From contig CAZJWO010000003.1 in NCBI GenBank assembly GCA_964549735.1, positions 4,829 through 68,828 on the forward strand: 64,000 nucleotides of DNA, read 5' to 3'. Every line of letters starts with the position of its first letter. Position 1 is the stretch's first letter. This document shows positions 20,711-39,148 of this stretch, in pieces. Source of the stretch: an uncultured Fibrobacteraceae bacterium. Its GTDB lineage: Bacteria; Krumholzibacteriota; Krumholzibacteriia; LZORAL124-64-63. A program made the translations under genes and the position numbers. Below the pieces are notes generated by a model. It was not told the DNA's origin, searched no databases, and saw only the letters and a program-made list of their open reading frames with translations.

Positions 20711-20715
20711 GATAC

Positions 20716-20737
20716 ACCCTGTACCATACTACAGGGT
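20716..20737. promoter_or_regulatory. Perfect dyad ACCCTGTA-N6-TACAGGGT immediately upstream of merR, flanked by TTGACC (-35-like) on the minus strand: MerR-type operator/promoter
   Basis: Seen directly in sequence. On the minus strand it reads TTGACC-ctgtagtatggtacagggtg-TATCTT (long-spacer promoter with internal dyad). Confidence 0.55.
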
Positions 20738-20882
20738 CAAGGGGCAAACAGGAGAAAATCGCAACTATATCAATTGGGGGCGGTCAGTCTTGGAAGTGGG
20801 TGGGGGGGATATATCCGTTCCTGAAGCCGACAGACCCCTCGCATCGCCGAGAGGTCGTCGGTTCATAGCGGGTTCCAGCGAG

Positions 20883-23960: not shown

Positions 23961-24507
23961 CCGCGATCTCCTGGCAGATCCGTTCGATTTCTTCCTCGAG
24001 GATGCGCTGGACCTCGGCGGGTTCCTGGACGGCGGCCAGGACGGTGGCGAGACGCTCGGGCAGGGCGATCAGCTGGTCGCGCGCCTTGCGGGCCATGTTG
24101 AACGCGCCGAGGCGGACCTCGTCGGCGGGGACGAGTGCACCGCGCCGGCGATCCAGCTCGAGCTTGGCCAGCTGCGCCTGGTACAACTCGCGAGCGGCGC
24201 GGGCTTTGGCGTAGCCGGTGGCTGTGGATGGCGCACCGATGGTCTCGTCGGCCGAGCCCAGGTCCATGGGTTCAGACGGCTCGCCCGGTGTCTTGGCTTG
24301 CTTTGGGTTGCCGGTGATCCGGTTGCGGGGCTTGCTCTGGTCGGTGTTCTGCTGCCACTCCTGGTCGGCAACGACAGGGTCGATTTTCCCGTTCACAGTC
24401 GAGATCCGGCCCGCCTTGATGGCGCGCTGAACTGCGACGTGGGTGACGCCACGCCGACGGGCGTACTCCCGTTGGGAGATCAGCTCCTTCTTCGCTTCCC
24501 TGACCAC
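23944..24507 (-). CDS. Phage terminase small subunit (HTH, Nu1/P27-like)
   Basis: N-terminal HTH ISQREYARRRGVTHVAVQRAIKAGRI. Overlaps the terL start. Acidic coiled-coil C-terminus. Confidence 0.6.
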   Translation of the reverse strand: MVREAKKELISQREYARRRGVTHVAVQRAIKAGRISTVNGKIDPVVADQEWQQNTDQSKPRNRITGNPKQAKTPGEPSEPMDLGSADETIGAPSTATGYAKARAARELYQAQLAKLELDRRRGALVPADEVRLGAFNMARKARDQLIALPERLATVLAAVQEPAEVQRILEEEIERICQEIADAERP

Positions 24508-24510: not shown

Positions 24511-26007
24511 CTATCCATCCTGGTCGGCCCTGCGGTCGGCGGCGATCTCGTCGAAGGCCCGGCCGTCGCCGTCCAGGATGGCCTTCTGGCCGGTGGCTTC
24601 CTGCCAGCGCATCACGATCACGTCCGTGTACGCGGGATCGAGTTCCATGAGGAAGGCATGGCGGCCGGTTTGCTCCGCTCCCATCAGGGTCGAGCCGCTG
24701 CCGCCGAACAGGTCGAGCACGTTCTGGCCGGGCTTCGACGAGTACTGGATGGCCCGCACGGCCAACTCGACCGGCTTCTCGGTCAGGTGGACCATGCTCT
24801 GTGGGTTGACCTTCTTGACCGCCCAGACGTCGACGGCGTTGGTGGGGCCGTAGAACTTGTGGCCGGCTCCTTCGCGCCAGCCGTAGAACGCCCACTCGTG
24901 GTTGCCCATGTAGTCTTTGCGGGTGAGCACGGGGTGCTCCTTCACCCAGATGACCGCCTGGCTGAAGTACAGGCCGCAGGCCTTCAGCACCGGAGGGTAG
25001 TTGGCGCAGTTGGCGTAGCCGCCCCAGATGTAGAACGAGTGCCCCGGCTGCAGCACGCGGGCGATGTTCCCGAACCACGCCAGGAGCATCTCGTCGAAGG
25101 CCTCGTCCGTGACGAAGTCGTTGGCCAGTGGGCGGTCCTTGGGGCGCATCTTCCCGGTGGCCTTCGACTTGGTCTTGTGCCGCGCGAGGTCGAAACCCTG
25201 GTGGTGCATGCCTTTCGCATCGGAGGCCTCGACGGCGCTCTTGGTGGACGGCGGGAAGCTGGACAAGCCGGCGGCAATGGCGTTGTTGGACCGCGGTTCG
25301 ACCTTCACGTTGTAGGGAGGGTCGGTGTTCACGAGGTGGATCTTCTCGCCGCCCAGCAGTCGGTCGACGGCGGCAGAGTCGCAGCTGTCGCCGCACAGTA
25401 GGCGGTGGTTGCCAAGGACCCACAGGTCGCCAAGGCGACTCGTAGGCTCCTCAGGCGGCTCGGGGGCGGCGACCTCCTCCGGGATCTCCTCGTCGAGCAG
25501 GGTGTTGAGTTCGTCCAGGTCGAAGCCGGTCAGCTCGAGGTTGAAGTCGAGATCCTCGAGTGCCTTCAACTCCTCGGACAGCAGATCCTCATCCCAGCCG
25601 GCGTCCAGCGCGAGCCGGTTGTCGGCGATGACGTAGGCCCGCTTCTGGGCCTCGGTCAGGTGGGTGAGCTCGATCACCGGGACCGTGGTCATGCCCAGCT
25701 CGCGGGCCGCCAGCAGCCGACCGTGGCCCGCGATGATGCCGGCCTCGCCGTCGACCAGGATCGGGTTGGTCCACCCGAACTCGAGCAGGCTGGCCGCGAT
25801 CTTGGTGACCTGCTCGGCGCTGTGGGTCCGCGGGTTTCGCTCGTAGGGGCGGAGCCGGTCGATGTTCCAGTGTTCCAGTTTCCCGGGCAGTCTCACGGGA
25901 GACTCGGCACGCGCGGAATCGTCCGTAGGGGCCGTTTCGGGCGCGTCTGAGGCCTTCTTCGATTTACCAGCACTGGAACGTTTGGTGTCGGTGGTAACTT
26001 GTTTCAT
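24511..26007 (-). CDS. ParB-like nuclease domain fused to a DNA N6/N4 methyltransferase (phage anti-restriction/orphan MTase)
   Basis: ParB-N motif (...RNPRTHSAEQV...GHGRLLAAREL...) followed by DPPY (VNTDPPYNV) and SAM-binding motifs. Confidence 0.8.
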   Translation of the reverse strand: MKQVTTDTKRSSAGKSKKASDAPETAPTDDSARAESPVRLPGKLEHWNIDRLRPYERNPRTHSAEQVTKIAASLLEFGWTNPILVDGEAGIIAGHGRLLAARELGMTTVPVIELTHLTEAQKRAYVIADNRLALDAGWDEDLLSEELKALEDLDFNLELTGFDLDELNTLLDEEIPEEVAAPEPPEEPTSRLGDLWVLGNHRLLCGDSCDSAAVDRLLGGEKIHLVNTDPPYNVKVEPRSNNAIAAGLSSFPPSTKSAVEASDAKGMHHQGFDLARHKTKSKATGKMRPKDRPLANDFVTDEAFDEMLLAWFGNIARVLQPGHSFYIWGGYANCANYPPVLKACGLYFSQAVIWVKEHPVLTRKDYMGNHEWAFYGWREGAGHKFYGPTNAVDVWAVKKVNPQSMVHLTEKPVELAVRAIQYSSKPGQNVLDLFGGSGSTLMGAEQTGRHAFLMELDPAYTDVIVMRWQEATGQKAILDGDGRAFDEIAADRRADQDG

Positions 26008-26135: not shown

Positions 26136-26801
26136 TCACAGACCCTGCCCCTTCGACCTCGCAATGGCGTTGAGGACTTCCTTCTCCATCTCCTCACGGA
26201 ACCAGCGGTCGGACTCCTTCTTGGCCGTCTCGACGAACCGCAGCCGCGGTTTGAGCTTCTTGCCGCTCGAGAAGAAATAGACCAGGCGCGAGGCCGCAGG
26301 CCCTGTGCGCTGGAAGATGCCGACCTCGGGCACGAGGTAGGTCTTGGTGCGCGTGACCCCGACGCGACGACGGCCGGTCTTGGTGAGATCGAAGCGGAGA
26401 CGGCGGACGCGCAGCTCGGGCGGGACGGGCTGCGTGAACCGCGGGCGGGCGGGTCCGCCGACCACGGGCTCGGCCACGCGTCGTGCCCCCTGCGTGGACG
26501 GTTTGCGTTCGGCACCACGCTCGAAGGCGGAAAGCAGGAGGCGGGGCTTCTGTCCGACCCCGATCTCGGCGTAGGACCGGCCCTGTTTCACGTTGGCGAA
26601 GGGCTTGATGACCGCGGCCTGGCGGAGGATGAACTCCTTCTTGCGGATCGTGAACTCATCCTCGACGCGCCGACGTTCGGCGGCCTGGATCCGCTTTGCC
26701 GTGTTGTTGATGGCGTTGACGACGGCATAGGCCAGCCGGCGCTGTCCGTTCTGCAGGCGCAGGACCAGCGGGGCGGAGTCGATCTGCAGGTCGATCCTCA
26801 T
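26136..26801 (-). CDS. Hypothetical phage protein
   Basis: Start set at MRIDLQID. The annotated N-terminal extension is Arg/Pro-rich junk. Confidence 0.45.
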   Translation of the reverse strand: MRIDLQIDSAPLVLRLQNGQRRLAYAVVNAINNTAKRIQAAERRRVEDEFTIRKKEFILRQAAVIKPFANVKQGRSYAEIGVGQKPRLLLSAFERGAERKPSTQGARRVAEPVVGGPARPRFTQPVPPELRVRRLRFDLTKTGRRRVGVTRTKTYLVPEVGIFQRTGPAASRLVYFFSSGKKLKPRLRFVETAKKESDRWFREEMEKEVLNAIARSKGQGL

Positions 26802-27106
26802 CGCGGCCCTCCAGAGTCGCCCCCGGACTGCTTGACCTGCTGGCTGTGCTGGTAGATGGCCTCGAGGGTGAGGCGGCCCCGGGACATCTCGACGAGGGCC
26901 ATGGCGCGAGCTGGGCTGGGTGCATGGCCCTGGAGCCACTCGTAGACAGCCTGGTTCGTGACGCGTAGGTCGGGATCGTAGGCCAGGCCGGCGACGATGC
27001 GAGGCACACCGAAATCGGCCACCCAGCGGCCGAACTCGGTCTGCCAGCGATCGGGGGCGCGCTTGAACCTGCCGCGTTCAAGCGCTTCGTCGCGGAACAT
27101 CGTCAC
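26798..27106 (-). CDS. Hypothetical phage protein
   Basis: 102-aa ORF. Confidence 0.45.
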   Translation of the reverse strand: MTMFRDEALERGRFKRAPDRWQTEFGRWVADFGVPRIVAGLAYDPDLRVTNQAVYEWLQGHAPSPARAMALVEMSRGRLTLEAIYQHSQQVKQSGGDSGGPR

Positions 27107-27205
27107 TCCCGGGGTGGACCGCAGGTCCGCCAGCGGCGAACAGAAAGCTTCTGCTGGTTACCTACCCCGTTTGTGATCGATGTGTCGGAATGAAACGCTC
27201 ACAGA

Positions 27206-27811
27206 CTAGCGCGAAGCGGCTCTCTCTTGCGCGGCATCCTTGAGAATCTCGAGCGCTTCTCGTGTCACGTAGAGCCCGATGCCGAAACCCACAACGAGAT
27301 CTGGATAGCGCGAGCCGGTAACGAATACCAACATGGCCGCGACCAGAACGGCCACGTTGGCGACCACGTCGGCGCGGGTGAAGATCCAGGTGGCGCGGAG
27401 ATGGACCTCGCCGTTGCGGTGCTTGGAGAGCAACCGAAGGACGATGGTGTTCACCACGAGGGCCGGAATGGCCAGAGCGGCCATGATCAGACTCTCCGGT
27501 TCGCTCCCGGTGATGGCTCGGGCGATGACGGCCACGCAAGCACCGAGGCCGAGCAGGAGGAGTATGGCGCCGCTGACTGTCGCCGCGCGCGCCTTGAAGA
27601 GCGATCCGCGGCTCACGGCCGCGATGGCGATCGCGTAGGCGGAAGCGTCGGCGAGCATGTCCAGAGAGTCCGCGATGAGTCCAGACGATTCACCAATGAC
27701 CCCGCCGATCATTTCGACCACGAACATCCCTGCGTTCAAGGCCAGGGCGAGACGGAGGGTCCTGCCCGCCTCGACAGAGGTCACCTCTGCGTGGCATCCA
27801 CAATCACTCAT
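27206..27811 (-). CDS. Cation diffusion facilitator-like membrane protein (TM domain only, ~200 aa)
   Basis: N-terminal CGCH. 5-6 TM helices with the CDF signature (SLIADSLDMLAD). Confidence 0.65.
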   Translation of the reverse strand: MSDCGCHAEVTSVEAGRTLRLALALNAGMFVVEMIGGVIGESSGLIADSLDMLADASAYAIAIAAVSRGSLFKARAATVSGAILLLLGLGACVAVIARAITGSEPESLIMAALAIPALVVNTIVLRLLSKHRNGEVHLRATWIFTRADVVANVAVLVAAMLVFVTGSRYPDLVVGFGIGLYVTREALEILKDAAQERAASR

Positions 27812-27871
27812 TCGAGCCGCTCCTCATGGACCGCGGTGCTATTCTGGTAAACATGGGGGTGAAGGCCCGGA

Positions 27872-28777
27872 CTAAGCGCATGGCCCGCACCCGTCCGTGT
27901 TTCCCCCGAAGTGTTCGAATTCAAGAGTGCTATGCTCGATAGCGAATTCCTTGCTCAGGAGTTTCTTCAATGCCCGCTTTGTCGTCTCAGCATCTTCGAT
28001 GTCATTCCAAGTAACGACGTGAGCTTCGAGAGCGCGACGGTGCTCATCGATCTGCCATACGTGAACGTGGTGCACGTCATGGACGCCCGGTACGGTGGCC
28101 ATCCGTTCGGTCAGCCGATCGAGATCCAGGTCGTCTGGAACGCTGTCCATGAGAATGCGGATCGATTCGGCCATCAACCGATATCCCTGGACCAGGATGT
28201 AGATGGCCAGCAACAGGGTGGCGATCAGGTCGGCAACGTACCATTGAAACACCAGCACGACGACCCCGACGCAGATGACGACGAGAGATCCAAGCGCGTC
28301 CGCGACGTTGTGGATGAAAGCGGCCTTGATGTTGAGGTTCTTCTTGGCCATCGAAAACGTCATAACGGCGGTCGCGACATCCACGACAAGAGCGAATCCG
28401 GCAACGATGACCACGATCCAGCCGTCGATGGGTTCCGGGTTCAGGAATCGGGCGAACGCCTCATAGACAAGGTACAACCCGACGATGATCAACGTCGTCG
28501 TATTGATCAGTGCGCCGATGACCTCGGCCTTGCGGTATCCGAATGTGCGTACCTTGTCGGCTGGTCGTCGCGCGATCCGCCGCGCGATGAGGGCGATTCC
28601 CAGCGACGCGGCGTCGTTCAGGTTGTGCAGGGCGTCCGCGACCAGCGACAGGCTGCCGGAGATGACGCCTCCGACAACCTGTGCGCCGGTCAGCAGCACA
28701 TTGACAGCAATGGCGACCAGCAGTCGGCGATCACCCGATCGTTCGGAATCAAAGTGGTGCGAGTGGCCATGGCCCAT
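27872..28777 (-). CDS. Cation diffusion facilitator family transporter (CzcD/ZitB-like) with His-rich N-terminus
   Basis: MGHGHSHH.... TM domain plus C-terminal cytoplasmic domain (...VHDVHHVHVWQID...). Confidence 0.85.
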   Translation of the reverse strand: MGHGHSHHFDSERSGDRRLLVAIAVNVLLTGAQVVGGVISGSLSLVADALHNLNDAASLGIALIARRIARRPADKVRTFGYRKAEVIGALINTTTLIIVGLYLVYEAFARFLNPEPIDGWIVVIVAGFALVVDVATAVMTFSMAKKNLNIKAAFIHNVADALGSLVVICVGVVVLVFQWYVADLIATLLLAIYILVQGYRLMAESIRILMDSVPDDLDLDRLTERMATVPGVHDVHHVHVWQIDEHRRALEAHVVTWNDIEDAETTKRALKKLLSKEFAIEHSTLEFEHFGGNTDGCGPCA

Positions 28778-28807
28778 TCCTGCTACCTCTTGTCGCGGCG
28801 CCTGCTG

Positions 28808-29146
28808 TCACACCGCGCTTTCGCCGGTCTCGCCGGTACTGATGCGAACGGCGTGACCGATGTCGGCGACGTAGATCTTCCCGTCCCCCTTCAGGCCGGT
28901 ATGCGCGGCGTTCTGGATCGCTGCCACGACATCATCGACGAGCTCGTCGCGACAGCATACTTCGATCTTCACGCCTTTTCGATAGCTGAGAGTGTCCGAC
29001 CCGGATGCGTCCTTCGTGGAGCTCCAACCCGCGCCGTAGCCGCGGCAGTCGACGACACTCATTCCCGTCAATCCTGCGATGCCGTGAAGCGCCGACGTGA
29101 CTTCGGAAAGCTTGTGCACCTGGATGTAGGCTTTGATCTCCTTCAT
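28808..29146 (-). CDS. P-II (GlnB/GlnK) family signal-transduction protein coupled to the RND pump gene
   Basis: MKEIKAYIQVHKLSEV...GLTGMSVVDCRGYG...KIEVCC...GDGKIYVADIGHAVRISTGE aligns with P-II along its full length. ATGA overlap with the czcA/cusA stop. Confidence 0.7.
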   Translation of the reverse strand: MKEIKAYIQVHKLSEVTSALHGIAGLTGMSVVDCRGYGAGWSSTKDASGSDTLSYRKGVKIEVCCRDELVDDVVAAIQNAAHTGLKGDGKIYVADIGHAVRISTGETGESAV

Positions 29147-32100
29147 GACGGATCTCCTTCGCGACTTCTCTCGTGTTCCACCTTGACCGCAAACCACTTG
29201 TAGAAGGCGGGGATCACGAGGAGGGTCAGTACGGTCGAGGTGACAAGGCCTCCGACGACCACGGTGGCCAGCGGCCGCTGGACCTCGCTGCCGGTCCCGT
29301 GCGAGAACAGCAGCGGCAAGAGTCCGAGAGCCGTTGTCGTCGCCGTCATCAGAACCGGTCGGAGCCTCTGACAGGCCCCCTGGACTGACGCTTCGGCCAG
29401 CGGGACGCCATCCCGCAACAACTGGTTGAGGTAGGTCACCAGCACCATGCCGTTCTCGAGCGCGATGCCGAATAGCGCGATGAATCCCACAGACGCCGGT
29501 ACGGAGAGGTTCTGGCCCGTAAGCCAGAGCCCGACAACGCCGCCGACCAGGGCCAGCGGAATATTCAACAGGATCAGCATCGAGTTGCGGATCGAGCCGA
29601 AGTTGCCGAAGAGCAGCAGGAACACGAACAGGAGCGTGACCGGCACGACCACCGCCAGACGCCGGTTGGCCTCCTGCTGGAGCCGGAACTGTCCGCCCCA
29701 GGTGACGAGATACCCCGCAGGCAGATCCACCGACGCGTCGATGGCCTCCTGCGCCTCGGCGACGAAGGAGCCGATGTCCCGGTTCACGACGTTGCACTGG
29801 ATGGAAACGAAGCGTTGGTTGTCCTCGCGGGTGATCTGCCGCGGACCGATGATCTCCTCGATGGAGGCCAGTTGATCGAGCGGAACCCGCGCTCCGTCCG
29901 GTGCCGTGATCAGGACGTGGCGGATGTCCTCGGCCGTGCTCCTCGCATCGGTCACGTAACGCACCAGGATGTCGAAGCGGCGAATCCCCTCGTAGATCTG
30001 CCCTGCGACCTCGCCGCCTATGGCGGCCCGGACGACCGCCTGCACCTCGTCGACGTTGATGCCGTACCTGGCGATCGCTTTGCGATCGATGCGCAGCAGG
30101 AGCTGAGGCGTACCGCTGACCTGGTCAACCTGGACATCGGCCGCTCCAGGCACCTGGCCGACGACCGCCGCCACTTGGGCAGCCTGTGCCATGAGGACGT
30201 CGAGGTCGGCACCGAAGATCTTGACTGCGAGTTCCGCCCGGACGCCTTCCAGGAGCTCGTCCACGGTCATCTCGATGGGCTGGGTCAGGTTGACCAGGAC
30301 GCCGGGCACGTTGCCGAGTTCCTCGCGAATGAGGTCCTCGATCCCTTCCTGACCGCCCGTGACCCGCCACTCCGATTCTGGTTGGAGGATAACGTAGATC
30401 TCCGCGCTGTTGATCGGGTCGGTGTGAGCGCCGACCTCTCCACGACCGATGCGGCTGATGACCTCCCGGATTTCGGGGATGGCCAGAAGCCTTCGCTCCA
30501 CGATCTGGGTCGTCCGCCGGCTTTCGGTCAAGGAGATGGACGGAGCCATCGTCAGGCGCACGACGATGGTCCCTTCGCGCAGCTTGGGTGTGAATTCCGA
30601 TCCGAGCCGGGGAACGATCAGGCCGCCGACGACTAGCAATACCACGGCCACCATCGCGGCGGCCCAGCGCCGGCGGACGAAGAAGGCGACGACCGGACGG
30701 TAGGGCACCTGCAGCCACCGGACTATCCGCGGCTCCTCCCCTGCTCCGCCATCCGCGCTCTTCTTGCCCGACCGCATCAGGAGACTGCTGAACGTAGGGG
30801 CGAGGAAGAGTGCGAAGACCAGGGAGCCGGACATAGCCATGGCCACCGTATAGGCGAGCGGCCGGAAGGTCTTGCCTTCGACACCCTGCAGCGTGAACAG
30901 CGGCACGAACACAAGGATGATGATGGAGATGGCGAAGAGGATTGGCCGCCCGACCTCCCCACAGGCCCCAGAGATGACGCTGAGTCGGGATTCATCCCGG
31001 CTCGCCAGCCGCAGGCGGCGGTCGACGTTCTCGACCATCACGATGGTGCCGTCGACCATCATGCCGATGGCGATGGCCAGGCCGCCGAGTGACATGAGGT
31101 TGGCCGAGATGCCGAAGCGCCCCATGAGCAGGAAGGCGAACAGCACCGAGAAGGGTAACGAGAGCGCCACGACGACGCTCGGGCGCAGGCCGCCCATGAA
31201 CACCAGCAGGACGATCGCCACCAGGACGATCCCCTGCAAGAGAGCGCTGGTCACGGTCTTCACGGCCGCCTCGACAAGGGCCTTCTGCTGGTAGTAGGGA
31301 ACGATCCGCACGCCCTCGGGCAGGATCTTGTTGATCTCCTCCAGCTTGCTCTCGACGCGGCTGATCACGGTCGAGGAATTCGTCCCGAACAGCTTGACGA
31401 CCTGCCCGGAAACGACCTCTCCCATGCCGTTGCGTGACTGCAGCCCGCGTCTTACCGCACCGCCTGTGCCGATCTCCGCCAGATCCGACAGGAAAATGGG
31501 CGTGCCGTCCTCGGTCTTGATGACGATCGAACGGAGATCCTCCGTGCCGGTGGCCAATCCCACCGAACGGACGATGAACTCCTCGGCGTTCTTCTCGATG
31601 AACTGGGCACCCACGTTGAGGTTGTTGGAGCGGATCGCGTCGATCACCTCGTCGAGCGTGACGTCGTATCGTAGGAGTTGTTCGGGCCTGATCTGGACGT
31701 GGAATTGCTTCTCGTGCCCCCCGATACCCAGGACCTCGGTGACGCCAGGCACGGTCTGCAGGTGGAATTTGATCAGCCAGTCCTGGATCGTGCGCAACTC
31801 CTCGAGGGAGTACTTTCCCGTCGTGTCGTCGAGGTAGTAGAAGAGGACAAGCCCCATCCCGGTCGAGATCGGCCCCATCTGGGGGTCCCCGAAACCCTCG
31901 GGGATCTGCTCGCGCGCTTCCTGCAGGCGCTCGCCGACGATCTGGCGGGCGAAGTAGATGTCCAAGCCGTCCTGGAAGTAGACGTTCACCACCGATAGGC
32001 CGAAATTGGATACCGATCGGACTTTCTCTACGCCCGGCAGGCCGGTCATGGCAGCCTCGACCGGAAAGGTGACGTATTTCTCTATCTCTTCAGGCGCGAG

Positions 32101-32265
32101 CCCATCTGTAACCGTGAAGACCTGCACCAGGTTGGGCGAGACGTCGGGAAAGGCGTCCACAGGCAGGCGCGTGTAGGCGAAGTAACCCACACCCATCACA
32201 AGCAGCGAGACGACGATCACCAGCAGCCGGTTCCTGAGGCTGAAACCTATGACTCGTTCAAGCAT
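29143..32265 (-). CDS. Heavy-metal efflux RND transporter, CusA/CzcA family
   Basis: 1040 aa, 12-TM RND architecture. Family-typical N-terminus MLERVIGFSLRNRLLVIVVSLLV. Confidence 0.9.
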   Translation of the reverse strand: MLERVIGFSLRNRLLVIVVSLLVMGVGYFAYTRLPVDAFPDVSPNLVQVFTVTDGLAPEEIEKYVTFPVEAAMTGLPGVEKVRSVSNFGLSVVNVYFQDGLDIYFARQIVGERLQEAREQIPEGFGDPQMGPISTGMGLVLFYYLDDTTGKYSLEELRTIQDWLIKFHLQTVPGVTEVLGIGGHEKQFHVQIRPEQLLRYDVTLDEVIDAIRSNNLNVGAQFIEKNAEEFIVRSVGLATGTEDLRSIVIKTEDGTPIFLSDLAEIGTGGAVRRGLQSRNGMGEVVSGQVVKLFGTNSSTVISRVESKLEEINKILPEGVRIVPYYQQKALVEAAVKTVTSALLQGIVLVAIVLLVFMGGLRPSVVVALSLPFSVLFAFLLMGRFGISANLMSLGGLAIAIGMMVDGTIVMVENVDRRLRLASRDESRLSVISGACGEVGRPILFAISIIILVFVPLFTLQGVEGKTFRPLAYTVAMAMSGSLVFALFLAPTFSSLLMRSGKKSADGGAGEEPRIVRWLQVPYRPVVAFFVRRRWAAAMVAVVLLVVGGLIVPRLGSEFTPKLREGTIVVRLTMAPSISLTESRRTTQIVERRLLAIPEIREVISRIGRGEVGAHTDPINSAEIYVILQPESEWRVTGGQEGIEDLIREELGNVPGVLVNLTQPIEMTVDELLEGVRAELAVKIFGADLDVLMAQAAQVAAVVGQVPGAADVQVDQVSGTPQLLLRIDRKAIARYGINVDEVQAVVRAAIGGEVAGQIYEGIRRFDILVRYVTDARSTAEDIRHVLITAPDGARVPLDQLASIEEIIGPRQITREDNQRFVSIQCNVVNRDIGSFVAEAQEAIDASVDLPAGYLVTWGGQFRLQQEANRRLAVVVPVTLLFVFLLLFGNFGSIRNSMLILLNIPLALVGGVVGLWLTGQNLSVPASVGFIALFGIALENGMVLVTYLNQLLRDGVPLAEASVQGACQRLRPVLMTATTTALGLLPLLFSHGTGSEVQRPLATVVVGGLVTSTVLTLLVIPAFYKWFAVKVEHERSREGDPS

Positions 32266-32286
32266 GTCAGACTCTCCGTTCTCCGA

Positions 32287-33261
32287 TCAATGATCGTGGT
32301 CGCCGCCGAATGATTCCTTGCCCAGTTCCGCCTTGAGCGTGAACCCGCCCTGGGAGACGTAGAGTTCACCTAGCGTGAGACCCGATACGATCTCGAGGCG
32401 ATTCGCATCCGCCCGGCCGACGACGACCGGCCGGGGTACGAATCCCTCCTCGGTCTGGACGAAGACGACGTCGCGGCCTTCGAACATCTGGAGGGCGGTT
32501 CTCGGCACGGCCACCGGGACCTCGATCCGATCCACCACGATCTGCGCGGTGATGAACGTTCCCGGCCGCCAGATGCCTTCGCCGTTCGGCAAAACGACAC
32601 GGGCGAGCGCCGTGCGGGTCGTCTCGTCCACGATCGGGGCGACATAGGAGACCACGCCGGAGGCCAGGGGGAGGTCGTGTCCCCCGACGATGGTCACCCG
32701 TTGTCCTTTCGAGACGTGAGTGAGAACACGCTGGTAGACGGTGATGTCGACCCAGACACTGCTCAGATCGGCGACGACGAAGGCGGCGTGCTCCCGCGAT
32801 ACGGCTTCGCCGAGCGTGATGTGCTTGTCGATGACGGTCCCCGAGATCAGGGTCTTCATCTCGTACGGGGAGAGGCTCTCGTCGCTCTCGATCACGGCTA
32901 GGACCTCTCCCGCCGACACTAGATCGCCGACCTGGCTACGGACTTCGGTGACGATGCCCGAGAAGCGCGGAACGATGTGCGCGAGGGCGCTGTCGTTGGC
33001 CTGGATCTCGCCGGGCAGTTCGAGGACCTGCTCCAGGATCGCCGGACCTGCTTCGGTCACGATGATCCCGAATTCCTGCATTTCCGCCGCTCCGAGCCGG
33101 ACCACATCTTCATGCTCTTCACCGTGGTCATGGCCGGTGTGTTCGTCTTCGTGCTCCTGGGCGAGTGCCGGCCGCGCCTGGAGGGTCAAGAGGACGCCGA
33201 GCATGACAAGAAGTTGGAAGTGCCTTGTGGCACGGTGGATTCGATAGCTGGGATTTCTCAT
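32287..33261 (-). CDS. RND efflux periplasmic adaptor (CusB/CzcB-like) with His/Glu-rich N-terminal metal-binding region
   Basis: Start set at MRNPSYRIH... just after the OMF stop. QEHEDEHTGHDHGEEHED then the beta-barrel/lipoyl MFP domains. Confidence 0.8.
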   Translation of the reverse strand: MRNPSYRIHRATRHFQLLVMLGVLLTLQARPALAQEHEDEHTGHDHGEEHEDVVRLGAAEMQEFGIIVTEAGPAILEQVLELPGEIQANDSALAHIVPRFSGIVTEVRSQVGDLVSAGEVLAVIESDESLSPYEMKTLISGTVIDKHITLGEAVSREHAAFVVADLSSVWVDITVYQRVLTHVSKGQRVTIVGGHDLPLASGVVSYVAPIVDETTRTALARVVLPNGEGIWRPGTFITAQIVVDRIEVPVAVPRTALQMFEGRDVVFVQTEEGFVPRPVVVGRADANRLEIVSGLTLGELYVSQGGFTLKAELGKESFGGDHDH

Positions 33262-33262
33262 G

Positions 33263-34654
33263 TCAGGGACGCTCCTGTTCCTGCTCGTTTCCGGTGATCG
33301 GTCCGGCGACGAGTCGCTCGATGTCCGCAACCGCACGGTGATAGGTGGCGAGGGATTCGATGTACCGTCCGCGGAGTTCGAAGTACGTCGTTCTGACCGC
33401 GAGAACATCGGTGTAGCTGAAAAGGCCCTTCAGGTAGGCGCTCTCGGCCGTCGCCATAGCTTCCTGGGCCTCGGGTATGATCTCGTCGCGAAGCATTTCC
33501 GCCGACTTGTACGCCGCCGTCAGCTCGGCGTAGCTGGTCGCCAGGGCGGCGCTGGCTGTCAGCACCTCCGCCTGACGCTCCTTGTCGATCTGGCCGAGCC
33601 GCAGCTCGGCGGCCTCGACATTGCCCTGGTTCCGGTCGCCGAACGGCAATGGAATGGAGAGCCCGGCGACGAACGCATTGTCTCCGGTCTCCTCGATGCG
33701 CCGGAAACCACCACCGGCCACGAGGTCGATCTTCCCCACCGCGCGCTCCAGGGCCACTGTAGCCTTCCGCTGGGCGAGTTCCGTCTGCCAGCGCGCGATG
33801 TCCGGATTGGCGTCGAGACGATCCCTGAGGTGATCCAAACCGGGCGGAGTTGAGATCCGTTCGAGGGTGCCGCGTGCATCGGCGAATTCGGGCTCGACGC
33901 TGCCCCAGGTCGCGGCGAGGCGGGCCCGGGCCGCAGTCAGGGCCAGCGCAAAGGATTCCCGGTCCATCTTCGCGGTGGCCAGGGCCACCCGCGCCCGGGT
34001 CAACTCGACCGGTGAGGTCGCGCCGGCCTTGACGCGCCTGTCGACCGCAGCGAGGTCCTGCTGGGCCACCTCGACCAGGCCATCTGCGAGTTCTACTTCC
34101 TGCTGGGCCGATATCACGTCGACGAACGCCCTGGTGACCTCACCGAGAACCTCGAGGCGGACGGCCTCGTAGTCCCACGTCGCCAGTTCACCGTCGAGAG
34201 CAGCGACGTCCTGCCGACTGGATCTCTTGCCGCCGAGTTCGAAGAGCTGGGCCAGAGACAGGGTGTACTCCGCGCCCCCGAAGCCGGAGAAGTCGCCGCT
34301 TCCGGCGAAGTTCTCGACATCGAGAGAGAGTTCGGGACTCGGGCGCAGGGACGCCTGAAGGGCCAGGGCGTCACGGACCCGTCGTTCCAGGTCGAAGACC
34401 GAGAGACGCGGGTTGTTCGCCAGGGCGAGAGCGAGAGCATCTCCCAAGGCCAATGGCCCGCCGGCCGGTTCCGTGGGCGCCAGGGACATGGGGCCGGTCT
34501 CTGCCGGGGCGTCCGAGGCTTCGCTCTGCCGCGCATCAGCCACCGCTATCGCGGCAACCAGGAGCAGCAGAGCCGATGCGCGCCGCAAGCGGCACGGCCA
34601 AAGCACATTCATGTTCGAATTCCTTGTCAGATGGTCACGCGGACTACACCGCAA
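33263..34654 (-). CDS. TolC-family outer membrane efflux protein (CusC/CzcC-like)
   Basis: Signal peptide. Two repeated coiled-coil/barrel halves. The true start may be MNVLWP (34612). Confidence 0.8.
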   Translation of the reverse strand: MRCSPRDHLTRNSNMNVLWPCRLRRASALLLLVAAIAVADARQSEASDAPAETGPMSLAPTEPAGGPLALGDALALALANNPRLSVFDLERRVRDALALQASLRPSPELSLDVENFAGSGDFSGFGGAEYTLSLAQLFELGGKRSSRQDVAALDGELATWDYEAVRLEVLGEVTRAFVDVISAQQEVELADGLVEVAQQDLAAVDRRVKAGATSPVELTRARVALATAKMDRESFALALTAARARLAATWGSVEPEFADARGTLERISTPPGLDHLRDRLDANPDIARWQTELAQRKATVALERAVGKIDLVAGGGFRRIEETGDNAFVAGLSIPLPFGDRNQGNVEAAELRLGQIDKERQAEVLTASAALATSYAELTAAYKSAEMLRDEIIPEAQEAMATAESAYLKGLFSYTDVLAVRTTYFELRGRYIESLATYHRAVADIERLVAGPITGNEQEQERP

Positions 34655-34708
34655 CGTCGCGGGTCGGCCAGAGCCGACTCGAACCAGGATGATCGGGCTG
34701 GGTGGGTA

Positions 34709-35053
34709 CTAGCAGACGAGCGGAAGGGCCGCTGCGGGAAGCGGAAGGGTGGGCGTATCCGGGACGATCACCTGGGTCAACGGGAGGGAGACCCAACCGA
34801 GAATGTTCCCACCAGGTGTATCGGGAAGATCTACCGAGACATCTACGTCAAGCAAAGAGACATCGAAAGATCGTACTTGGGAAACGGGGACCAGGAGGAC
34901 ATTGCACGGGTCCGAGGAGCACCCCACTTCATGTCCGCACGATACCTCCGGACAGCATGCGCAGAAATGGTCGAACATCCCTGACAGGCACGCCGAAGGG
35001 GCCAGAAACAGGGTCCAGACAAGTGCGACAAAAAGAATCCGATTTGCATTCAT
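34709..35053 (-). CDS. Small secreted Cys-rich protein
   Basis: Signal peptide MNANRILFVALVWTLFLAPSACLSG. Cys cluster HFCACCPEVSCGHEVGCSSDPC. Confidence 0.4.
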   Translation of the reverse strand: MNANRILFVALVWTLFLAPSACLSGMFDHFCACCPEVSCGHEVGCSSDPCNVLLVPVSQVRSFDVSLLDVDVSVDLPDTPGGNILGWVSLPLTQVIVPDTPTLPLPAAALPLVC

Positions 35054-35204
35054 GGGACGAATGATAGTTCCCACTCGATTGGTCCGCAACGCAAGGCCAC
35101 GAAATTGGCCAACTCGCGATCGACGTATAAACCACCTACCGATAGAAGTTCCTGACTTCTATCGACGTGCAATTGACGCTGAGACGCCACCGGGCTCTGC
35201 CCAT

Positions 35205-35726
35205 CTAGGGCAGAAGGTTGACCATCACGTCCATTCGATTGCTTTCGTGGCCGTGCTGGTCGTATCCACAGAACTCGTAGTGGTATTCGCCCGGATTCGC
35301 TCCCGCACGATGGCACCCATACTGCTGGGCATCGTCCACGAAGCAGAATATCCCGTCGCCCGGGACGGGGTCGCCGTGAGTTCCATCGTCGTAGCAATAG
35401 AACTCGCCCTGGTGCATGTAACCACCCATGTGCCCCATCATGCCGGACATCCCGTATCGAACCCGGACCTGTCCACCAACAATGGGATTGCCATGATGAT
35501 CGGCGAGCCGGGCCTCGTAGTGCATTGGCCCCGAGTATTCTCCCTGCTGGATGTCCAGGCCGTCGAGGGACTGGCCATCGACACTGACCTTGGCTACGCT
35601 GAGCGTGAGGTCACCAGGATTCGAATCGACGGGCTCGGTGGGATCGTCATGACCGCACCCCCCGACTGTGAGCATCAGGAAGGTGGCGGCTATGAACGTC
35701 ATGGATCGTACTGTCCGCTTCAGCAT
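35205..35726 (-). CDS. Lipoprotein with Met/His-rich Cu(I)/Ag(I)-binding-like motif
   Basis: Lipobox LTVGGCG. MSGMMGHMGGYMHQG plus multiple His/Cys. Confidence 0.55.
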   Translation of the reverse strand: MLKRTVRSMTFIAATFLMLTVGGCGHDDPTEPVDSNPGDLTLSVAKVSVDGQSLDGLDIQQGEYSGPMHYEARLADHHGNPIVGGQVRVRYGMSGMMGHMGGYMHQGEFYCYDDGTHGDPVPGDGIFCFVDDAQQYGCHRAGANPGEYHYEFCGYDQHGHESNRMDVMVNLLP

Positions 35727-35890: not shown

Positions 35891-38341
35891 CTAGATCCTG
35901 TCCATCTCCCATTCGATCTCCCGAATCGCGTCATGAGCCCGCCCCGCCCCGTACGTCCTGACGATCACCCGCAGATGATCGTTGAGCCGCCCCAGCCCAG
36001 ATTCGGCAATCTCAGTTGCCTCAAGGTAGGTCCAGGAGGTGCCTGTCAATCCTGATTCGGTATGGACCAGCGTGTCGGACTCTCCATAGACCAGGATGTC
36101 GTACTCGGTACCTGCCTCAGGCGATGTCGTCTTTCCCGAATCGGCATAGCTCCACGATCCCAGACGATTCCGGTACGACCACGACACGGTCAGTTCGCCG
36201 GTGATCGAAGCCGGATAGCTCTCCCCGTTGAAGCGGACATCGGTCGGGCAGTAGACCTTCGCCGACCGCGCCGGCGTCGTGGCCACGACCTGCGACGTCG
36301 GGCACGACGTGAACGTGAACTCGCTCTGGTTGTTGTAGGACTGGAAGCGGATGTCGTTATAGACGTTGATGGTCGGGGGAACCGGCCCCCGGATGTTCAC
36401 GATCTGGCTGCCGTAGGAGAGAAACCAGACGCGAGTTCCAGCGGGGAATGCCGTCGGCGAAGTATCGAGGCACCCCCGCGCGACGACCTGCAAGGTGACG
36501 TCGCTTTCGCCCTGCACCACGGTCTGGAACGCGATGAACTCCTCAAGACCGTCGTATTCGATCCAGGCGACGTTGACGCCGAGGGAGAAGTCGGGCGCGC
36601 TGACCGACTCGACCAGGTCGGTGTCCAACCCCGAGGCCACGACGATCTCACTGGTCAGTTCGTCGATCGCCGTGCTGAGAACCCCAGAGGGCGTGAAGAA
36701 CGGTACATCGACCGGTGGCGCCCATCCTCCCGCACCGTCCGAGACGTAGGCCCGGTATCCGAGGGAGACCCCGGTCAGCCCGGCGGCGGCGAGCGTGATG
36801 GCCAACTGCACGTCGGCCGCCAAGCTGCCGTAGTCCTTCACCGCCTCGTAGGGCGCGGCCAGGGCCACCTGGTCGGTCAGAGCCGGGACGTCTCCGGAGG
36901 GGTCCTGCCAGCCGGAGTCCGGTGGCGTCGAATAGCCCGTCCAGTCCACCGCGAAGACGTCCTCCATGGCCTCGATCTCGATCTTCCCGGAGTCCAAGCG
37001 TCCCGTCCCGACCCGAACAACTCTGCAGACCATGCCGGTGATGCCCAATGGGTCCCAGATCAGTTTGAACACTGCCCCCGGGCGGAAAGCCCAGGCGGAG
37101 CGGTCGGCCTCGACCGTGATCGTGGCCAGCGGGTAGGCCAGGGCGGCCAAGGACCGGGCGGCCGCCTGCTGGGCGGTCGTCGAGTTTGACAGCCCGCGAA
37201 GGGTGAGGTCCTGAAGCGAGACTTCGCCACCCTGCACTTCGATCCCAGCGAGGTCTTGGGCCTGGGCCGTCTTCTCGATGAACCCGGCATCACGGCTCAC
37301 ATAGCCGATCCGCACCGAGTTCTTGAGGTCACCCCAAGACGGCCTGGCGAACGACTTCACCGTGCACGAGTCCGCATCAAGCACCGGGATCGTCTCGGGA
37401 TCGTAGTCGCTGCGGATGAGCCGAATCGTCAGAAGCCCTGTCGTGGGCTCGACGTAGATGACCCCGTCGATGTGCCGCAGGATCTCGAGGACCAGGTCCT
37501 TCGCCGTGGTGCCGCGGTCCTGCAGCATCGAAAGCCCGAGGCCTTCGTCGGCCAGCGTCTGGCCCACCGAGCGGAAGGCGTCCACGTCCAGAAATCCCAC
37601 CGGCAACCCGAGGCCGTTCTCGGAAGGCGGCGAGATCAGAATGTCGTAGATCATGGCCGCCGGGTTGGCGTCGCCGTCGATGTTGTGGGCGCCATCAGCC
37701 AGGCCGAGGCCATTGGGGCAGCGGCGGACCACGAAGGAGACGGCCTTGATGTAGGGACTCGTCCCCAGGTAGACGCGCCGGAACACCGCGTAACAAACCC
37801 GCCTCCAAGCGGGGAGGCTCTCTCCGATACGCGCCTCGAGGTAGGAGTCCGCCGGCTGGGTGGGTGTGCCGTGGTAGACGTAGATGCTGCCTTTGACCCC
37901 GCCTTCGGAGTCCTCCCCGCCGAAGAAGCCGGGGGCATTGATGCTGATCTGCGTGAGGTCGGGCACATGCGCGTACCCGGCCGGTGGCCGCCTGTCGTCG
38001 AACCGGATCTGCAGGACCTCGTCGATCTCGCCGCTGCACAGCACCAGCTGGATGCCGAGGTAGTACTTGTAGCCGGTGGTGATCTCCTTCGAGGAGAACA
38101 ATCCCGTTTTGACCTTCTCCTTGATAGCCTGGATGCGCAGGTCACCGTACCACGTAACCATGGGGCCCGAGAGCTTGCAGGTGCCCCACACAACCGGGAT
38201 GGTCCGGCCCTCGCCGATCGTGGGGAACTGGAAGTCGCCCAGGCTGGAGGGCGTCGGCGCGTCGAACTGCGGCTTCGGGCGCAGGACTTCGTATAGGACC
38301 GTGCCGACGAGGTAGACCAGGGCTATGACCCAGAAGGCCAT
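35891..38341 (-). CDS. Phage tail host-specificity / tail-fibre protein (lambda gpJ or GTA gp15-like)
   Basis: Start set at MAFWVIALVYLV. ~816 aa. Confidence 0.7.
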   Translation of the reverse strand: MAFWVIALVYLVGTVLYEVLRPKPQFDAPTPSSLGDFQFPTIGEGRTIPVVWGTCKLSGPMVTWYGDLRIQAIKEKVKTGLFSSKEITTGYKYYLGIQLVLCSGEIDEVLQIRFDDRRPPAGYAHVPDLTQISINAPGFFGGEDSEGGVKGSIYVYHGTPTQPADSYLEARIGESLPAWRRVCYAVFRRVYLGTSPYIKAVSFVVRRCPNGLGLADGAHNIDGDANPAAMIYDILISPPSENGLGLPVGFLDVDAFRSVGQTLADEGLGLSMLQDRGTTAKDLVLEILRHIDGVIYVEPTTGLLTIRLIRSDYDPETIPVLDADSCTVKSFARPSWGDLKNSVRIGYVSRDAGFIEKTAQAQDLAGIEVQGGEVSLQDLTLRGLSNSTTAQQAAARSLAALAYPLATITVEADRSAWAFRPGAVFKLIWDPLGITGMVCRVVRVGTGRLDSGKIEIEAMEDVFAVDWTGYSTPPDSGWQDPSGDVPALTDQVALAAPYEAVKDYGSLAADVQLAITLAAAGLTGVSLGYRAYVSDGAGGWAPPVDVPFFTPSGVLSTAIDELTSEIVVASGLDTDLVESVSAPDFSLGVNVAWIEYDGLEEFIAFQTVVQGESDVTLQVVARGCLDTSPTAFPAGTRVWFLSYGSQIVNIRGPVPPTINVYNDIRFQSYNNQSEFTFTSCPTSQVVATTPARSAKVYCPTDVRFNGESYPASITGELTVSWSYRNRLGSWSYADSGKTTSPEAGTEYDILVYGESDTLVHTESGLTGTSWTYLEATEIAESGLGRLNDHLRVIVRTYGAGRAHDAIREIEWEMDRI

Positions 38342-39148
38342 CAGTCGATCCTCCCGGAGAAGGGATTGCGGCCCGGAAGTCGCGACCAACCGAGGTGGTT
38401 CGCTAGGTTGCTGAACTTGTTCTGGCAGGTGGCCTCGAGGTGATCGCAGCCCCAGTAGGCCCAGACCTGGTCGAGGGACGACAACCCCGGGATCGGCGAG
38501 ATGAGCGAGACGGTGTCGCCCTGGTGGTCGACGATGAAGCGGGTCTCTCCGGTGGCGGATTCGAGGCGGCCCCCGCGGAACCACTGGTCAGGGCGAAGGG
38601 CGAACCCGCTCGAGATCACCGTCGCACCCGAAACCGAAGTGACCGTAACCTGGTCGCGGCATGCCCCGGGGTCAGCGCCGCAGGCCGCCGAGTACAGCAC
38701 GTGGTTGCATGGCGTCTGCATGGCCAGGATCGGCACCGTGCGGGCCAGCATAGCCATCAGGCTCGCCCCGGTCAGAATGGCCTCGGATTCCTCGAAGCGG
38801 GCGCGGTTCACCTTGCCGCTGAAGATGGTCACCGCGAGGGACTCCTCGCCGCGATGGGCGCGGTAGACCGTCACCCAGACCGACGTGGACGGCAGATCCC
38901 CGACGAACAGGGCGGCCACAGGGTTCGCGCGCGGCAGCGTCAGGTCGATGGTCTCGCCGGTGTCCTCCTGGGAGAAGTCGAGCTCGCTTCGGGTGATGGC
39001 CTCGGGAGCGAACACGCCGGCGGGCAATGTGATCGTCCGGTCCGCCGACGTGTAGAGCCACAGGTTGCTGCCCTGGGCGAACCGGAAACCCTCGACGGGC
39101 TGACCCAGGTACCGGCTCTTCTCCCGCGCGTCGTAAGTCACAACGGAG
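38341..39148 (-). CDS. Phage tail protein (distal tail / hub-associated, GTA gene-13-like)
   Basis: GTG start overlapping the upstream stop (GTGA). The annotated N-terminal 200 aa of ORF 38341..39774 is out-of-frame junk overlapping the previous gene. Confidence 0.5.

Follow-up and report, generated by a model that had tools for sequence, protein, structure and literature searches.

A predicted divalent-metal export cluster in a moron-type slot of a putative temperate prophage from an uncultured bacterium

The window analysed here, a 64,000-nucleotide stretch of contig CAZJWO010000003.1 from an uncultured bacterium, contains a prophage that extends from approximately 6.3 to 55.5 kb and that encloses, at 27,206–35,726 on the minus strand, a block of eight genes specifying a complete tripartite efflux pump, a P-II protein, two cation diffusion facilitator (CDF) transporters and two accessory proteins. 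Judged by its genes, the prophage is that of a temperate, siphovirus-like phage with a serine integrase. Profile searches against Pfam and NCBIfam placed on the minus strand every gene that the original prediction, which had been made from the sequence alone, had described for this block, and the block is transcribed in the same direction as the tail and packaging genes of the phage, as had been claimed.

In the direction of transcription, the first cargo gene (35205–35726) encodes a Met/His/Cys-rich lipoprotein of 173 amino acids with a lipobox Cys at position 24 and the motif MSGMMGHMGGYMHQG, and the second (34709–35053) encodes a small secreted Cys/His-rich protein of 114 amino acids that has a signal peptide and starts at the ATG at 35053 rather than at an upstream TTG. 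Three pump genes follow. These encode an outer-membrane factor (OMF; 33263–34612, 449 amino acids, PF02321 OEP at 157 bits, its start taken from independent gene calls), for which IhpA (256 bits, under the cutoff of 650) is the top-scoring NCBIfam model; a periplasmic adaptor of the membrane fusion protein type (MFP; 32287–33261, 324 amino acids, HlyD_D23 at 104 bits, with BSH_CzcB and CzcB_C among the precomputed Pfam matches), which carries the His/Glu-rich stretch QEHEDEHTGHDHGEEHED directly after its signal/anchor segment, as predicted; and an inner-membrane pump of the heavy-metal efflux (HME) branch of the resistance-nodulation-division (RND) superfamily (29143–32265, 1040 amino acids), which scores 1101 bits against TIGR00914 (the CusA/CzcA family; cutoff 701) and falls below the cutoff of every multidrug RND model. 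The stop codon of the pump gene overlaps the start codon of a gene for a P-II protein (28808–29146, 112 amino acids, PF00543 at 64 bits against a cutoff of 25) in the tetranucleotide ATGA at 29143–29146; this overlap had been noted from the sequence, and the same 4 nt appear in independent gene calls (in locus L124, for example, RND 13462–16584 and P-II 16581–16919). The block ends with the two CDF genes, one for a 301-amino-acid protein with a His-rich N terminus and a ZT_dimer C-terminal domain (27872–28777; PF01545 157, PF16916 38 and TIGR01297 254 bits), and the other for a short protein of 201 amino acids (27206–27811) that comprises the membrane domain only and scores 73 bits on PF01545 and 87 on TIGR01297, whose cutoff is 82.

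The gene upstream of the block, which had been called a tail-fibre gene, is a phage tail gene, but it encodes a distal tail or host-specificity protein of 816 amino acids (35891–38341, minus strand; PF13550 Phage-tail_3, phrog_1101 at E 4e-214; gpJ/'megatron'-like) rather than a fibre in the strict sense. This protein, the product of the final conserved gene in the tail operon, is 33–36% identical to the tail proteins of Xylella phage Salvo (35%) and of Pseudomonas PaMx25-like phages. Downstream of the block lie two conserved phage genes on the same strand, g100 (26798–27100, 100 amino acids) and g221 (26136–26801, with a weak match to the phrog_1924 'minor tail protein'), both of which follow the cargo position in approximately 30 relatives. 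To delimit the cargo, we collected relatives of the phage by scanning IMG/VR with the tail protein, which gave 37 loci (45–99% identity), and by scanning GTDB species representatives, which gave 22 further loci; we then compared gene order by tblastn across all of the fetched loci (designated by L-numbers), among them approximately 35 related phages, and placed the edges with DNA alignments. Homology among the relatives stops at the stop codon of the tail gene (35,891) and returns approximately 90 nt upstream of g100 (27,100), in a conserved non-coding element (27101–27195, minus strand) at which it resumes in the window and in L009, L019, L013 and L017, and which is probably the promoter or leader of the packaging operon. 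The slot so defined is only 243 nt long, and effectively empty, in L032, and reaches 9,255 nt in L135; the cargo described here is 8,790 nt, roughly 18% of the phage genome, and the filled slots of relatives hold 1.4–9.3 kb of other cargo. The proposal that the efflux genes occupy a moron position between tail and packaging genes was thus borne out, with the edges fixed to the nucleotide and with differing cargo in approximately 35 relatives.

The slot is hypervariable, a hot spot for cargo: at least eight kinds of content, with sharp boundaries, occupy it in these relatives. They include a Na+/H+ exchanger with a TrkA_C domain (L007, L008 and L013), a radical SAM protein with an ABC transporter (L009), a radical SAM protein together with an insertion sequence, RelA_SpoT and a sulfatase (L017), and YaaC-like genes (L014, L019 and L142); several loci hold genes that we could not identify. 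An RND cluster is present in about one quarter of the informative loci. Using the signature in transmembrane segment 4 (TM4) of the pump to tell these clusters apart, we found diverged clusters of the same type as that in the window (AIG-DGT-VEN) in L135, L136/L140 and L141; an inverted cluster with AIG-DDA-VEN and a CDF gene, within which no P-II gene was detected, in L137 (3280–7866); an inverted cluster with DFG-DGA-TEN, a P-II gene, a P-type ATPase and a homologue of the lipoprotein in L143 (12881–21103) and L153; and an inverted cluster with the canonical DFG-DGA-VEN, a P-II gene and an EamA transporter in L152 (12546–20583). The slot therefore holds at least three further, non-orthologous types of RND(+P-II) cluster besides the one described here, and the presence of several unrelated types in one slot argues that RND clusters have entered it repeatedly. 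A search for repeats turned up nothing on the flanks of the cargo, direct or inverted, that would point to a transposon; in the top-scoring inverted pair (35 nt, 77%), one arm lies inside the CDF gene. Together, the edges and the variable content suggest that the block is an accessory, moron-type, lysogenic-conversion module of 8.8 kb, a kind of cargo that is already known.

The arrangement of the window recurs elsewhere. In JGI, Logan, ENA and NCBI assemblies, made from different samples, at least 23 contigs carry the tail gene, the genes for the lipoprotein, the Cys/His-rich protein, OMF, MFP, RND pump, P-II and both CDFs, and then g100, g221 and the ParB-methyltransferase gene, with cargo that is 99–100% identical. 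Some prophages of the relatives lie inside chromosomal contigs of 0.9–4.7 Mb. In one of these contigs (CAVSKL010000003.1, 909 kb), two prophages of the lineage (L148 and L156) lie approximately 60 kb apart, with tail proteins 78% and 70% identical to that of the window, which suggests polylysogeny.

The original prediction had assigned the system to the Cus rather than to the Czc type. Comparison of the pump with CusA overturned this assignment. Within gap-free stretches of the alignment to CusA PDB chains, the pump has R570, S620 and E670 where CusA has its Met triad (M573, M623 and M672), and a Val in place of M271. Of these residues, R570 and E670 do not vary among 20 homologues, and S620 is kept in at least 90% of them. 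The adaptor is of the CzcB/IhpB type (IhpB 290 bits against a cutoff of 450; CzcB/NccB 135; CusB 41 against a cutoff of 390), with an N terminus that is His/Glu-rich and not Met-rich, and no CusF-like gene was found in the cluster. Both CDFs are ZitB/CzcD-like, reaching none of the ZitB, FieF and DmeF equivalogs (the 301-amino-acid protein scores 202 bits against the ZitB model, below the cutoff of 408). Among solved structures, ZneA is the best match to the whole pump at 697 bits, as against 643 bits for CusA; over the N-terminal third of the pump the scores are 270 bits for CusA and 242 bits for ZneA.

The TM4 segment of the pump, AIGMMVDGTIVMVEN, reads AIG-MMV-DGT-IVM-VEN. Published signatures are DFG-DGA-VEN for HME1/2 (CzcA/CnrA), DFG-DGA-MEN for ZneA, AVG-DAA-IEN for CusA/SilA, AIG-DGS-VEN for HME3b (HmyA-like), a class predicted by Nies to be monovalent, and AIG-DD[SA]-[MV]EN for HME5 (PMC7060636 and its supplement). 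The pump matches none of these exactly. It departs from the CzcA/CnrA signature in having Ala in place of the first Asp and DGT in place of DGA, and it lacks the CusA-type pattern A[VI]G-x3-DAA-x3-IEN; the nearest signature is that of HME3b, from which it differs by Thr for Ser, yet the proximal pattern of HmyA, E D T D E, is different. The proximal-site residues of ZneA, E136, D602, E610, D654 and D658, align to L139, D616 (or H614), E622, M666 and E670 of the pump, so that three of the five are acidic, and Leu or Met is also found at position 654 in CzcA-type pumps (PMC7060636). Across 20 homologues (71–89% identity), A399, I400, G401, D405, G406, T407, E412 and N413 are invariant, as are H614, D616, E622, M666, D669 and E670, which include the candidate ligands: H614, D616, E622, D669 and E670 lie at or near positions of the ZneA proximal site. 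A site made up of His and carboxylates would suit divalent cations rather than thioether-bound Cu(I), and on these grounds we infer that the pump exports divalent metals and belongs to an HME clade of its own.

The protein encoded downstream of the pump matches GlnZ/GlnB structures (E 1e-19) over residues 1–111 and retains the B-loop GDGK, and this full-length match, together with the B-loop, marks it as a genuine member of the P-II fold. It scores 74 and 70 bits against the GlnB and GlnK equivalog models, whose cutoffs are 202 and 181, and its T-loop, GAGWSSTKDASGSD, lacks both Tyr51, the site of uridylylation, and Gln39 (aligned to GlnZ), which sets it apart from canonical GlnB and GlnK. P-II genes that cluster with Czc-type proton/cation antiporters have been described as PII-NG (PMC7726332), a group that this source credits to Sant'Anna et al. 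2009; in Geobacter sulfurreducens, a PII-NG-czcABC operon (GSU2134–2137) is Fur-regulated and induced by Co(II) (PMC7726332). Such clustering, which makes the P-II protein PII-NG-like, is what we observe, as the P-II gene adjoins the RND gene in the window and in L040, L135, L136, L141, L143, L152 and L153. Of five cluster variants that we compared, four have a P-II gene after the RND gene, and in L137 none was detected. The P-II proteins of the unrelated clusters in L143, L152 and L153 are 38–43% identical to that of the window. The ATGA overlap, from which co-translation of the P-II protein with the pump had been suggested, is real, and the pairing is conserved in L040, which is not a phage locus; the association was nevertheless over-read, because the PII-NG class had already been described. 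Since P-II and RND proteins are both trimers, direct docking of the two is an attractive, if speculative, idea, and a pairing that is both repeated and translationally coupled offers a tractable system in which to study PII-NG function.

Neither of the two accessory proteins belongs to a family with a Pfam model. The lipoprotein has 41 homologues, in which the lipobox Cys, the Met-rich loop PGMMGHMxGY and a His/Cys-rich C-terminal half (YDDGTHGD..PGDG.YCF...YGCH...GEYHYEFCG) are conserved. An AlphaFold2 model (pLDDT 82) has an Ig-like β-sandwich fold, for which a Foldseek search of the PDB returned only generic Ig-like matches (TM-scores 0.3–0.46); a match to the 'choice-of-anchor X' model was marginal (23.3 against a cutoff of 25). 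One homologue is encoded next to a CusB-type RND cluster and a P1B-type ATPase that has YHS and HMBD domains, and another in an unrelated context. Modelling and conservation thus make the lipoprotein a candidate new metal-binding envelope protein, which might bind copper or another soft metal; this has no bearing on the specificity of the pump. The Cys/His-rich protein is conserved at 112–114 amino acids in L040 (7222–7566, 77% identity) and L041 (7168–7506, 43% identity), where the pattern C..DH..C..SCGHE..C..DPC, with its Cys, His and Asp residues, is invariant and the C-terminal LPLxC and the signal peptide are kept. Gene callers skip this open reading frame in most contigs, and it is called as a gene of 114 amino acids in L135; we treat it as real on the strength of that call and of its conservation at the protein level. 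The protein, which has no Pfam or NCBIfam match, may be an analogue of the CzcI-type small periplasmic protein, its gene lying upstream of that for the OMF.

The nearest homologues of the pump (85–89% identity) are in metagenome-assembled genomes (MAGs) labelled Krumholzibacteria/Krumholzibacteriia, and slightly more distant ones are in Latescibacterota, Eisenbacteria, Planctomycetota and others. Copies of the cluster outside phages have RND proteins 87–89% identical to that of the window and the same gene order, and two of the closest copies have no adjoining phage tail genes. In one non-phage copy (L040), the final ~110 nt of a lipoprotein gene stand ahead of the genes for the Cys/His-rich protein, OMF, MFP, RND, P-II and a CDF, a remnant which indicates that the lipoprotein was part of the ancestral unit. 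In another (L041), the genes for the Cys/His-rich protein, OMF, MFP and RND are followed by an unrelated gene of 127 amino acids; this gene was rejected as a diverged P-II gene, and three proteins of 164–166 amino acids encoded upstream of the L041 cluster were rejected as homologues of the lipoprotein (only 19–25% identity). Between the window and L136, the backbone proteins are 92% (tail) and 95% (TerL) identical, and the cargo proteins 85–86% (RND), 84% (CDF), 78% (P-II), 71% (MFP) and 60% (OMF). The greater divergence of the cargo points to replacement or exchange rather than to simple co-descent with the backbone, and the cargo appears, from these comparisons, to exchange with chromosomal copies. 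An operon of a kind native to the host lineage would have been captured into the slot, which lies where the tail operon gives way to the packaging operon.

Taken together, we favour, with a probability of about 0.72, the reading that the cluster is a complete, envelope-spanning export module for divalent transition metals, carried in the moron slot of a temperate prophage. In such a module, the two CDF antiporters would move metal from the cytoplasm to the periplasm, and the OMF–MFP–RND complex, driven by the proton gradient, would expel periplasmic metal across the outer membrane. The His/Glu-rich N terminus of the adaptor, the Cys/His-rich secreted protein and the Met/His/Cys-rich lipoprotein would serve as metal-binding accessories in the periplasm or envelope, and the P-II protein, being translationally coupled to the pump gene, would presumably tune the system to the energy or metal status of the cell. 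If expressed in a lysogen, the module would raise metal tolerance and so benefit both host and prophage.

Several observations weigh against this reading. The TM4 segment of the pump lacks the first Asp of the CzcA DFG, as do those of CusA and HME3b, and the residue that aligns with E136 of ZneA is Leu. The lipoprotein may have a link to copper, as judged from its Met-rich loop and the CusB-type neighbourhood of its homologue. A scan of the region for σ70 promoters and terminators returned no promoter and a single terminator-like site, which lies inside a gene; the host probably uses promoter types other than the σ70 consensus, and a candidate promoter of the Bacteroidota type (TTG-N20-TAGCTTTG) was spotted, by eye only, upstream of the lipoprotein gene. 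No regulator of the cluster was found within the cargo, and the MerR operator dyad of the prophage occurs only at the merR promoter, so that there is no sign of MerR control over the efflux cluster. The portal gene lies on the strand opposite to the capsid, tail and terminase genes, which is an unusual arrangement among siphoviruses, and the assignment of the host rests on MAG labels that are discordant among short contigs. Among other candidate control elements, a dyad upstream of the lipoprotein gene (CACTA-N5-TAGTG, one occurrence) was rejected as not significant, having been reached by 27 of 100 shuffles, and no riboswitch (e.g. NiCo/czcD) in or near the cargo reached the Rfam gathering thresholds.

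Two alternatives concern what the module would export. It could be a Cus-type Cu(I)/Ag(I) efflux system in which the Met-rich lipoprotein serves as a periplasmic copper chaperone, a reading that draws on the conserved Met-rich loop, on the lipoprotein homologue beside the YHS/HMBD ATPase and CusB-type cluster, on the Ala with which TM4 starts, as it does in CusA and in the 'monovalent' HME3b, and on the slightly better score of the N-terminal third of the pump against CusA. We consider it quite improbable: the substitutions of all four CusA methionines are conserved across the clade, TM4 has DGT and VEN rather than DAA and IEN, the whole protein scores higher against ZneA, the adaptor is far from CusB, and the cluster lacks a CusF homologue and holds two ZitB-like CDFs. 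The module could instead be a homeostatic exporter of an essential divalent metal (Fe2+, Co2+ or Mn2+), through which the phage would adjust metal homeostasis rather than confer resistance. In NCBIfam, the OMF and MFP score highest on IhpA and IhpB, described as a 'divalent metal ion exporter', and the title of the paper on IhpABC of Bradyrhizobium describes iron homeostasis; the PII-NG-czc operon of Geobacter is Fur-regulated and responds to Co(II), as noted above (PMC7726332), and many chromosomes of the host lineage carry the cluster. Both Ihp scores are nevertheless far under their equivalog cutoffs (256 against 650 and 290 against 450), the cargo also includes ZitB-like CDFs, and the mer-like module of the prophage, together with the P1B-type ATPases and CzcA-type pumps in the slots of relatives, fits a theme of resistance better, so that a purely homeostatic role seems unlikely to us.

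Two further alternatives concern the association with the phage. An assembly chimera, or host DNA caught between two separate phage remnants, could explain why several short-read contigs break exactly at the end of the tail gene and why the GC content of the cargo (0.61–0.65) is slightly under that of the structural genes. Both junctions are, however, reproduced in at least 23 contigs that different assemblers built from independent samples, which shows that they are not chimeric, and in approximately 30 relatives the two flanks are joined through an insert that is short or of other content, with a distance of 243 nt between them in L032; an artefact is accordingly an extremely remote prospect. 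There is more to be said for a defective or domesticated prophage whose cargo is never packaged, in which case the cluster would be an ordinary chromosomal island within phage-derived DNA. In keeping with this, the portal gene is on the strand opposite to the other head, tail and packaging genes, a lysis cassette was not identified in this prophage, the cargo of 8.8 kb is close to the top of the observed slot sizes, and the IMG/VR contigs of the closest relatives stop at the edge of the cargo. Yet the prophage has a full set of integrase, replication, TerS, TerL, portal, protease-capsid, tail and tape-measure genes, its backbone is 92–99% conserved over many metagenomes and several species-level MAGs, and two related copies reside in one chromosome. 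Turnover of cargo is confined to defined slots and its size is apparently capped near 9 kb, as a packaging limit would predict, and an induced, cultured phage with an RND pump provides a precedent. We therefore judge decay of the prophage to be a minority prospect, and packaging of the module into virions to be probable.

The prophage has the gene set expected of a functional temperate phage, comprising integrase, replication, terminase, portal, capsid and tail genes. At its left end are genes for a DUF2924 protein and a large serine recombinase (6343–8386, plus strand; PF11149, PF00239, PF07508 and PF13408), and on its right side the GC content falls from ~0.66 to ~0.53 at roughly 55.5 kb. 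Beyond g221, the minus strand encodes a ParB-N/N6_N4 DNA methyltransferase (24511–26007, phrog_498), the small terminase TerS (23944–24507, phrog_57) and the large terminase TerL (22110–23960, phrog_15 at E 1e-245, with GpA_ATPase and GpA_nuclease in homologues). The fusion of the ParB-N nuclease-like domain to the methyltransferase, directly upstream of TerS, is kept in every relative that covers the region. The rest of the structural region (38341–55454) includes, on the minus strand and by PHROG matches, tail assembly genes, the tape measure (43545–46103), the major tail protein (46802–47569) and a protease-capsid fusion (49082–51061); a tail terminator is also encoded on this strand. The portal gene (~51736–53238, plus strand; phrog_21 at E 3e-100), with five small open reading frames (51104–55454, plus strand), is divergent from the capsid–tail–cargo–terminase strand, and inversion was rejected as the cause, since no simple inversion gives back the canonical gene order. 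On the plus strand, beyond TerL, lie genes for a sigma factor, an exonuclease, Sak4, a helicase and a primase.

A second metal-related cargo of the same prophage is a MerR-type module (19345–20765, minus strand) that lies between the small open reading frames after TerL and the convergent primase gene. It encodes a MerR-family regulator (20279–20710; 144 bits against the MerR cutoff of 151 and 138 against the ZntR cutoff of 143), a DF-family thioredoxin-like protein (19977–20318; NF049942, 114 bits against a cutoff of 70) and a MerT-HMA fusion (19345–19980; PF02411 and PF00403, 44 bits each), and no merA gene was seen in it. The merR promoter is of the textbook MerR type, with TTGACC and TATCTT separated by a 20-nt spacer that holds the perfect dyad ACCCTGTA-N6-TACAGGGT. 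A merR gene occupies the equivalent place in L135 and is absent from L136.

Outside the prophage, the left flank (531–6299) is a host metal locus with a DUF302 protein, a cytochrome c, a copper-type P1B ATPase with YHS and HMBD domains (1541–3937) and a weak, sub-threshold match to DUF3347. The right flank (55500–64000) is a low-GC island (0.52–0.55) with Eco57I-type and N6_N4 DNA methyltransferases, a match to a group II intron domain (60787–60861; RF00029, 45.7 bits) and a protein of 779 amino acids with a type IX secretion system (T9SS) Por_Secre_tail domain, which points to a host of the Fibrobacterota–Chlorobiota–Bacteroidota (FCB) group. Short contigs of the phage have been binned as Hyphomonas, Fibrobacteraceae, Thioalkalivibrio, Verrucomicrobia, Desulfocapsa and Spirochaetaceae, labels that are probably binning errors, and the megabase-scale contigs of the phage lineage are labelled Krumholzibacteria or Eisenbacteria. 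An uncultured FCB-group bacterium, probably of the Krumholzibacteriota/Eisenbacteria type, is the most likely host.

The slot also bears on how cargo of this kind is catalogued. Six IMG/VR contigs of the lineage (L003, L004, L005, L006, L012 and L033) end 0–31 nt from the tail stop codon, that is, at the edge of the cargo slot; L003 (99%) and L004 (98%) both continue for 31 nt beyond the tail gene, and in L003 this short extension matches the window. Such ends could reflect either assembly breaks at a polymorphic site or the trimming of 'host-like' sequence, and, whichever is the cause, they imply that virus catalogues tend to lose or under-report the cargo; catalogues that trim 'host-like' regions may do so systematically. 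A scan of IMG/VR with RND peptide patterns returned no relative, possibly through the same effects of trimming or assembly. With megablast, the cargo gave only an 80-nt match against plasmids, and 25 kb of the window gave no match against phages.

Claims of phage-borne metal resistance often rest on doubtful contigs, and the locus described here would be a clean case of a virus with a whole multi-component efflux system. It suggests that viruses can move entire metal-pump systems between uncultured bacteria, and the at least four RND(+P-II) clusters, the ion exchangers and the P-type ATPases found in the slot suggest that these phages move envelope transport systems between FCB-group hosts. 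It is tempting to go further and to regard the lineage as a dedicated shuttle for envelope-spanning metal-efflux operons, in whose slot tripartite RND clusters of at least four non-orthologous types have arrived independently, although we consider this rather doubtful. Were it true, selection, or a mechanism, would favour such cargo, and the clusters would form a natural comparative set with which to test whether a PII-NG trimer docks on and gates an RND trimer, as GlnK gates AmtB. It is this comparative pattern, rather than the single locus, that holds most of the interest.

The original prediction had also described phage-borne RND efflux as rare. This holds in so far as a tblastn search with the pump matched only 55 of 50,697 deposited phage records, most of which are apparently either bacterial contigs mislabelled as phage or gut metagenome contigs that lack annotation; it must be qualified by genuine precedents. 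The Mu-like phage vB_E427 of B. thailandensis (PQ789820; L159, 7481–12234), which was induced and sequenced as a phage, encodes an adaptor and a CzcA-type pump; this pump is full-length, has the DFG-DGA-VEN signature, is 42% identical to that of the window, and is annotated as a 'hypothetical protein' adjoining the annotated RND adaptor, and the published description of the phage mentions the adaptor alone. Paracoccus prophages carrying AcrABCR, ZitB and ZntA, and a soil virome contig (VC-2) with Czc genes, have been reported as well.

Among characterized efflux systems, CzcCBA/ZneCAB with CzcD of Cupriavidus metallidurans resembles the cluster in its OMF–MFP–RND architecture, in the His-rich N terminus of its CzcB-type adaptor, in its associated CDFs and in the gene for a small periplasmic protein upstream of that for the OMF (the CzcI position); the pump has carboxylates at positions equivalent to ZneA 602, 610 and 658, and ZneA is the best-scoring solved structure. 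Unlike those systems, the cluster described here has AIG-DGT-VEN rather than DFG-DGA-VEN/MEN in TM4, Leu and Met in place of ZneA E136 and D654, no two-component or sigma/anti-sigma regulator, a P-II gene, and a location inside a prophage. CusCFBA of E. coli shares with it membership of the TIGR00914 family, a TM4 that starts with Ala and, possibly, a comparable small periplasmic metal-binding accessory; in contrast to CusCFBA, the cluster lacks the Met triad, the M271 relay, a CusB-like adaptor with N-terminal Met ligands and CusF, and includes CDFs and a P-II protein. In the PII-NG-czcABC operon of G. sulfurreducens, too, a P-II gene that does not reach the canonical GlnB/GlnK models is found in an operon with a Czc-type RND gene; there the P-II gene precedes the operon, whereas here, in a prophage, it follows the RND gene with an ATGA overlap. 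The IhpABC system of Bradyrhizobium japonicum supplies the best NCBIfam matches of the OMF and adaptor, at scores well under the equivalog cutoffs.

On the phage side, Casjensviridae-like siphophages (Salvo, PaMx25 and Ab18) and RcGTA-type tails have a homologous tail-tip module: the tail proteins are 33–36% identical to that of the window, the phrog families agree, the N terminus is 'megatron'-like and the adjoining gene encodes Phage_BR0599. Downstream of the tail protein gene, Salvo has further tail-assembly, fibre and lysis genes, whereas in the window the cargo slot comes next; and, unlike the Casjensviridae-like phages, the phage described here would be temperate, with a serine integrase, and has its portal gene on the opposite strand. 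The phage-moron precedents (vB_E427, the Paracoccus prophages and VC-2) likewise have host-derived transporter genes placed between conserved phage modules and variable among close relatives. What is new here, relative to those precedents, is a complete eight-gene system in a slot mapped to the nucleotide, a host that probably belongs to an uncultured phylum, and the recurrence of several unrelated RND clusters in the slot of a single phage lineage.

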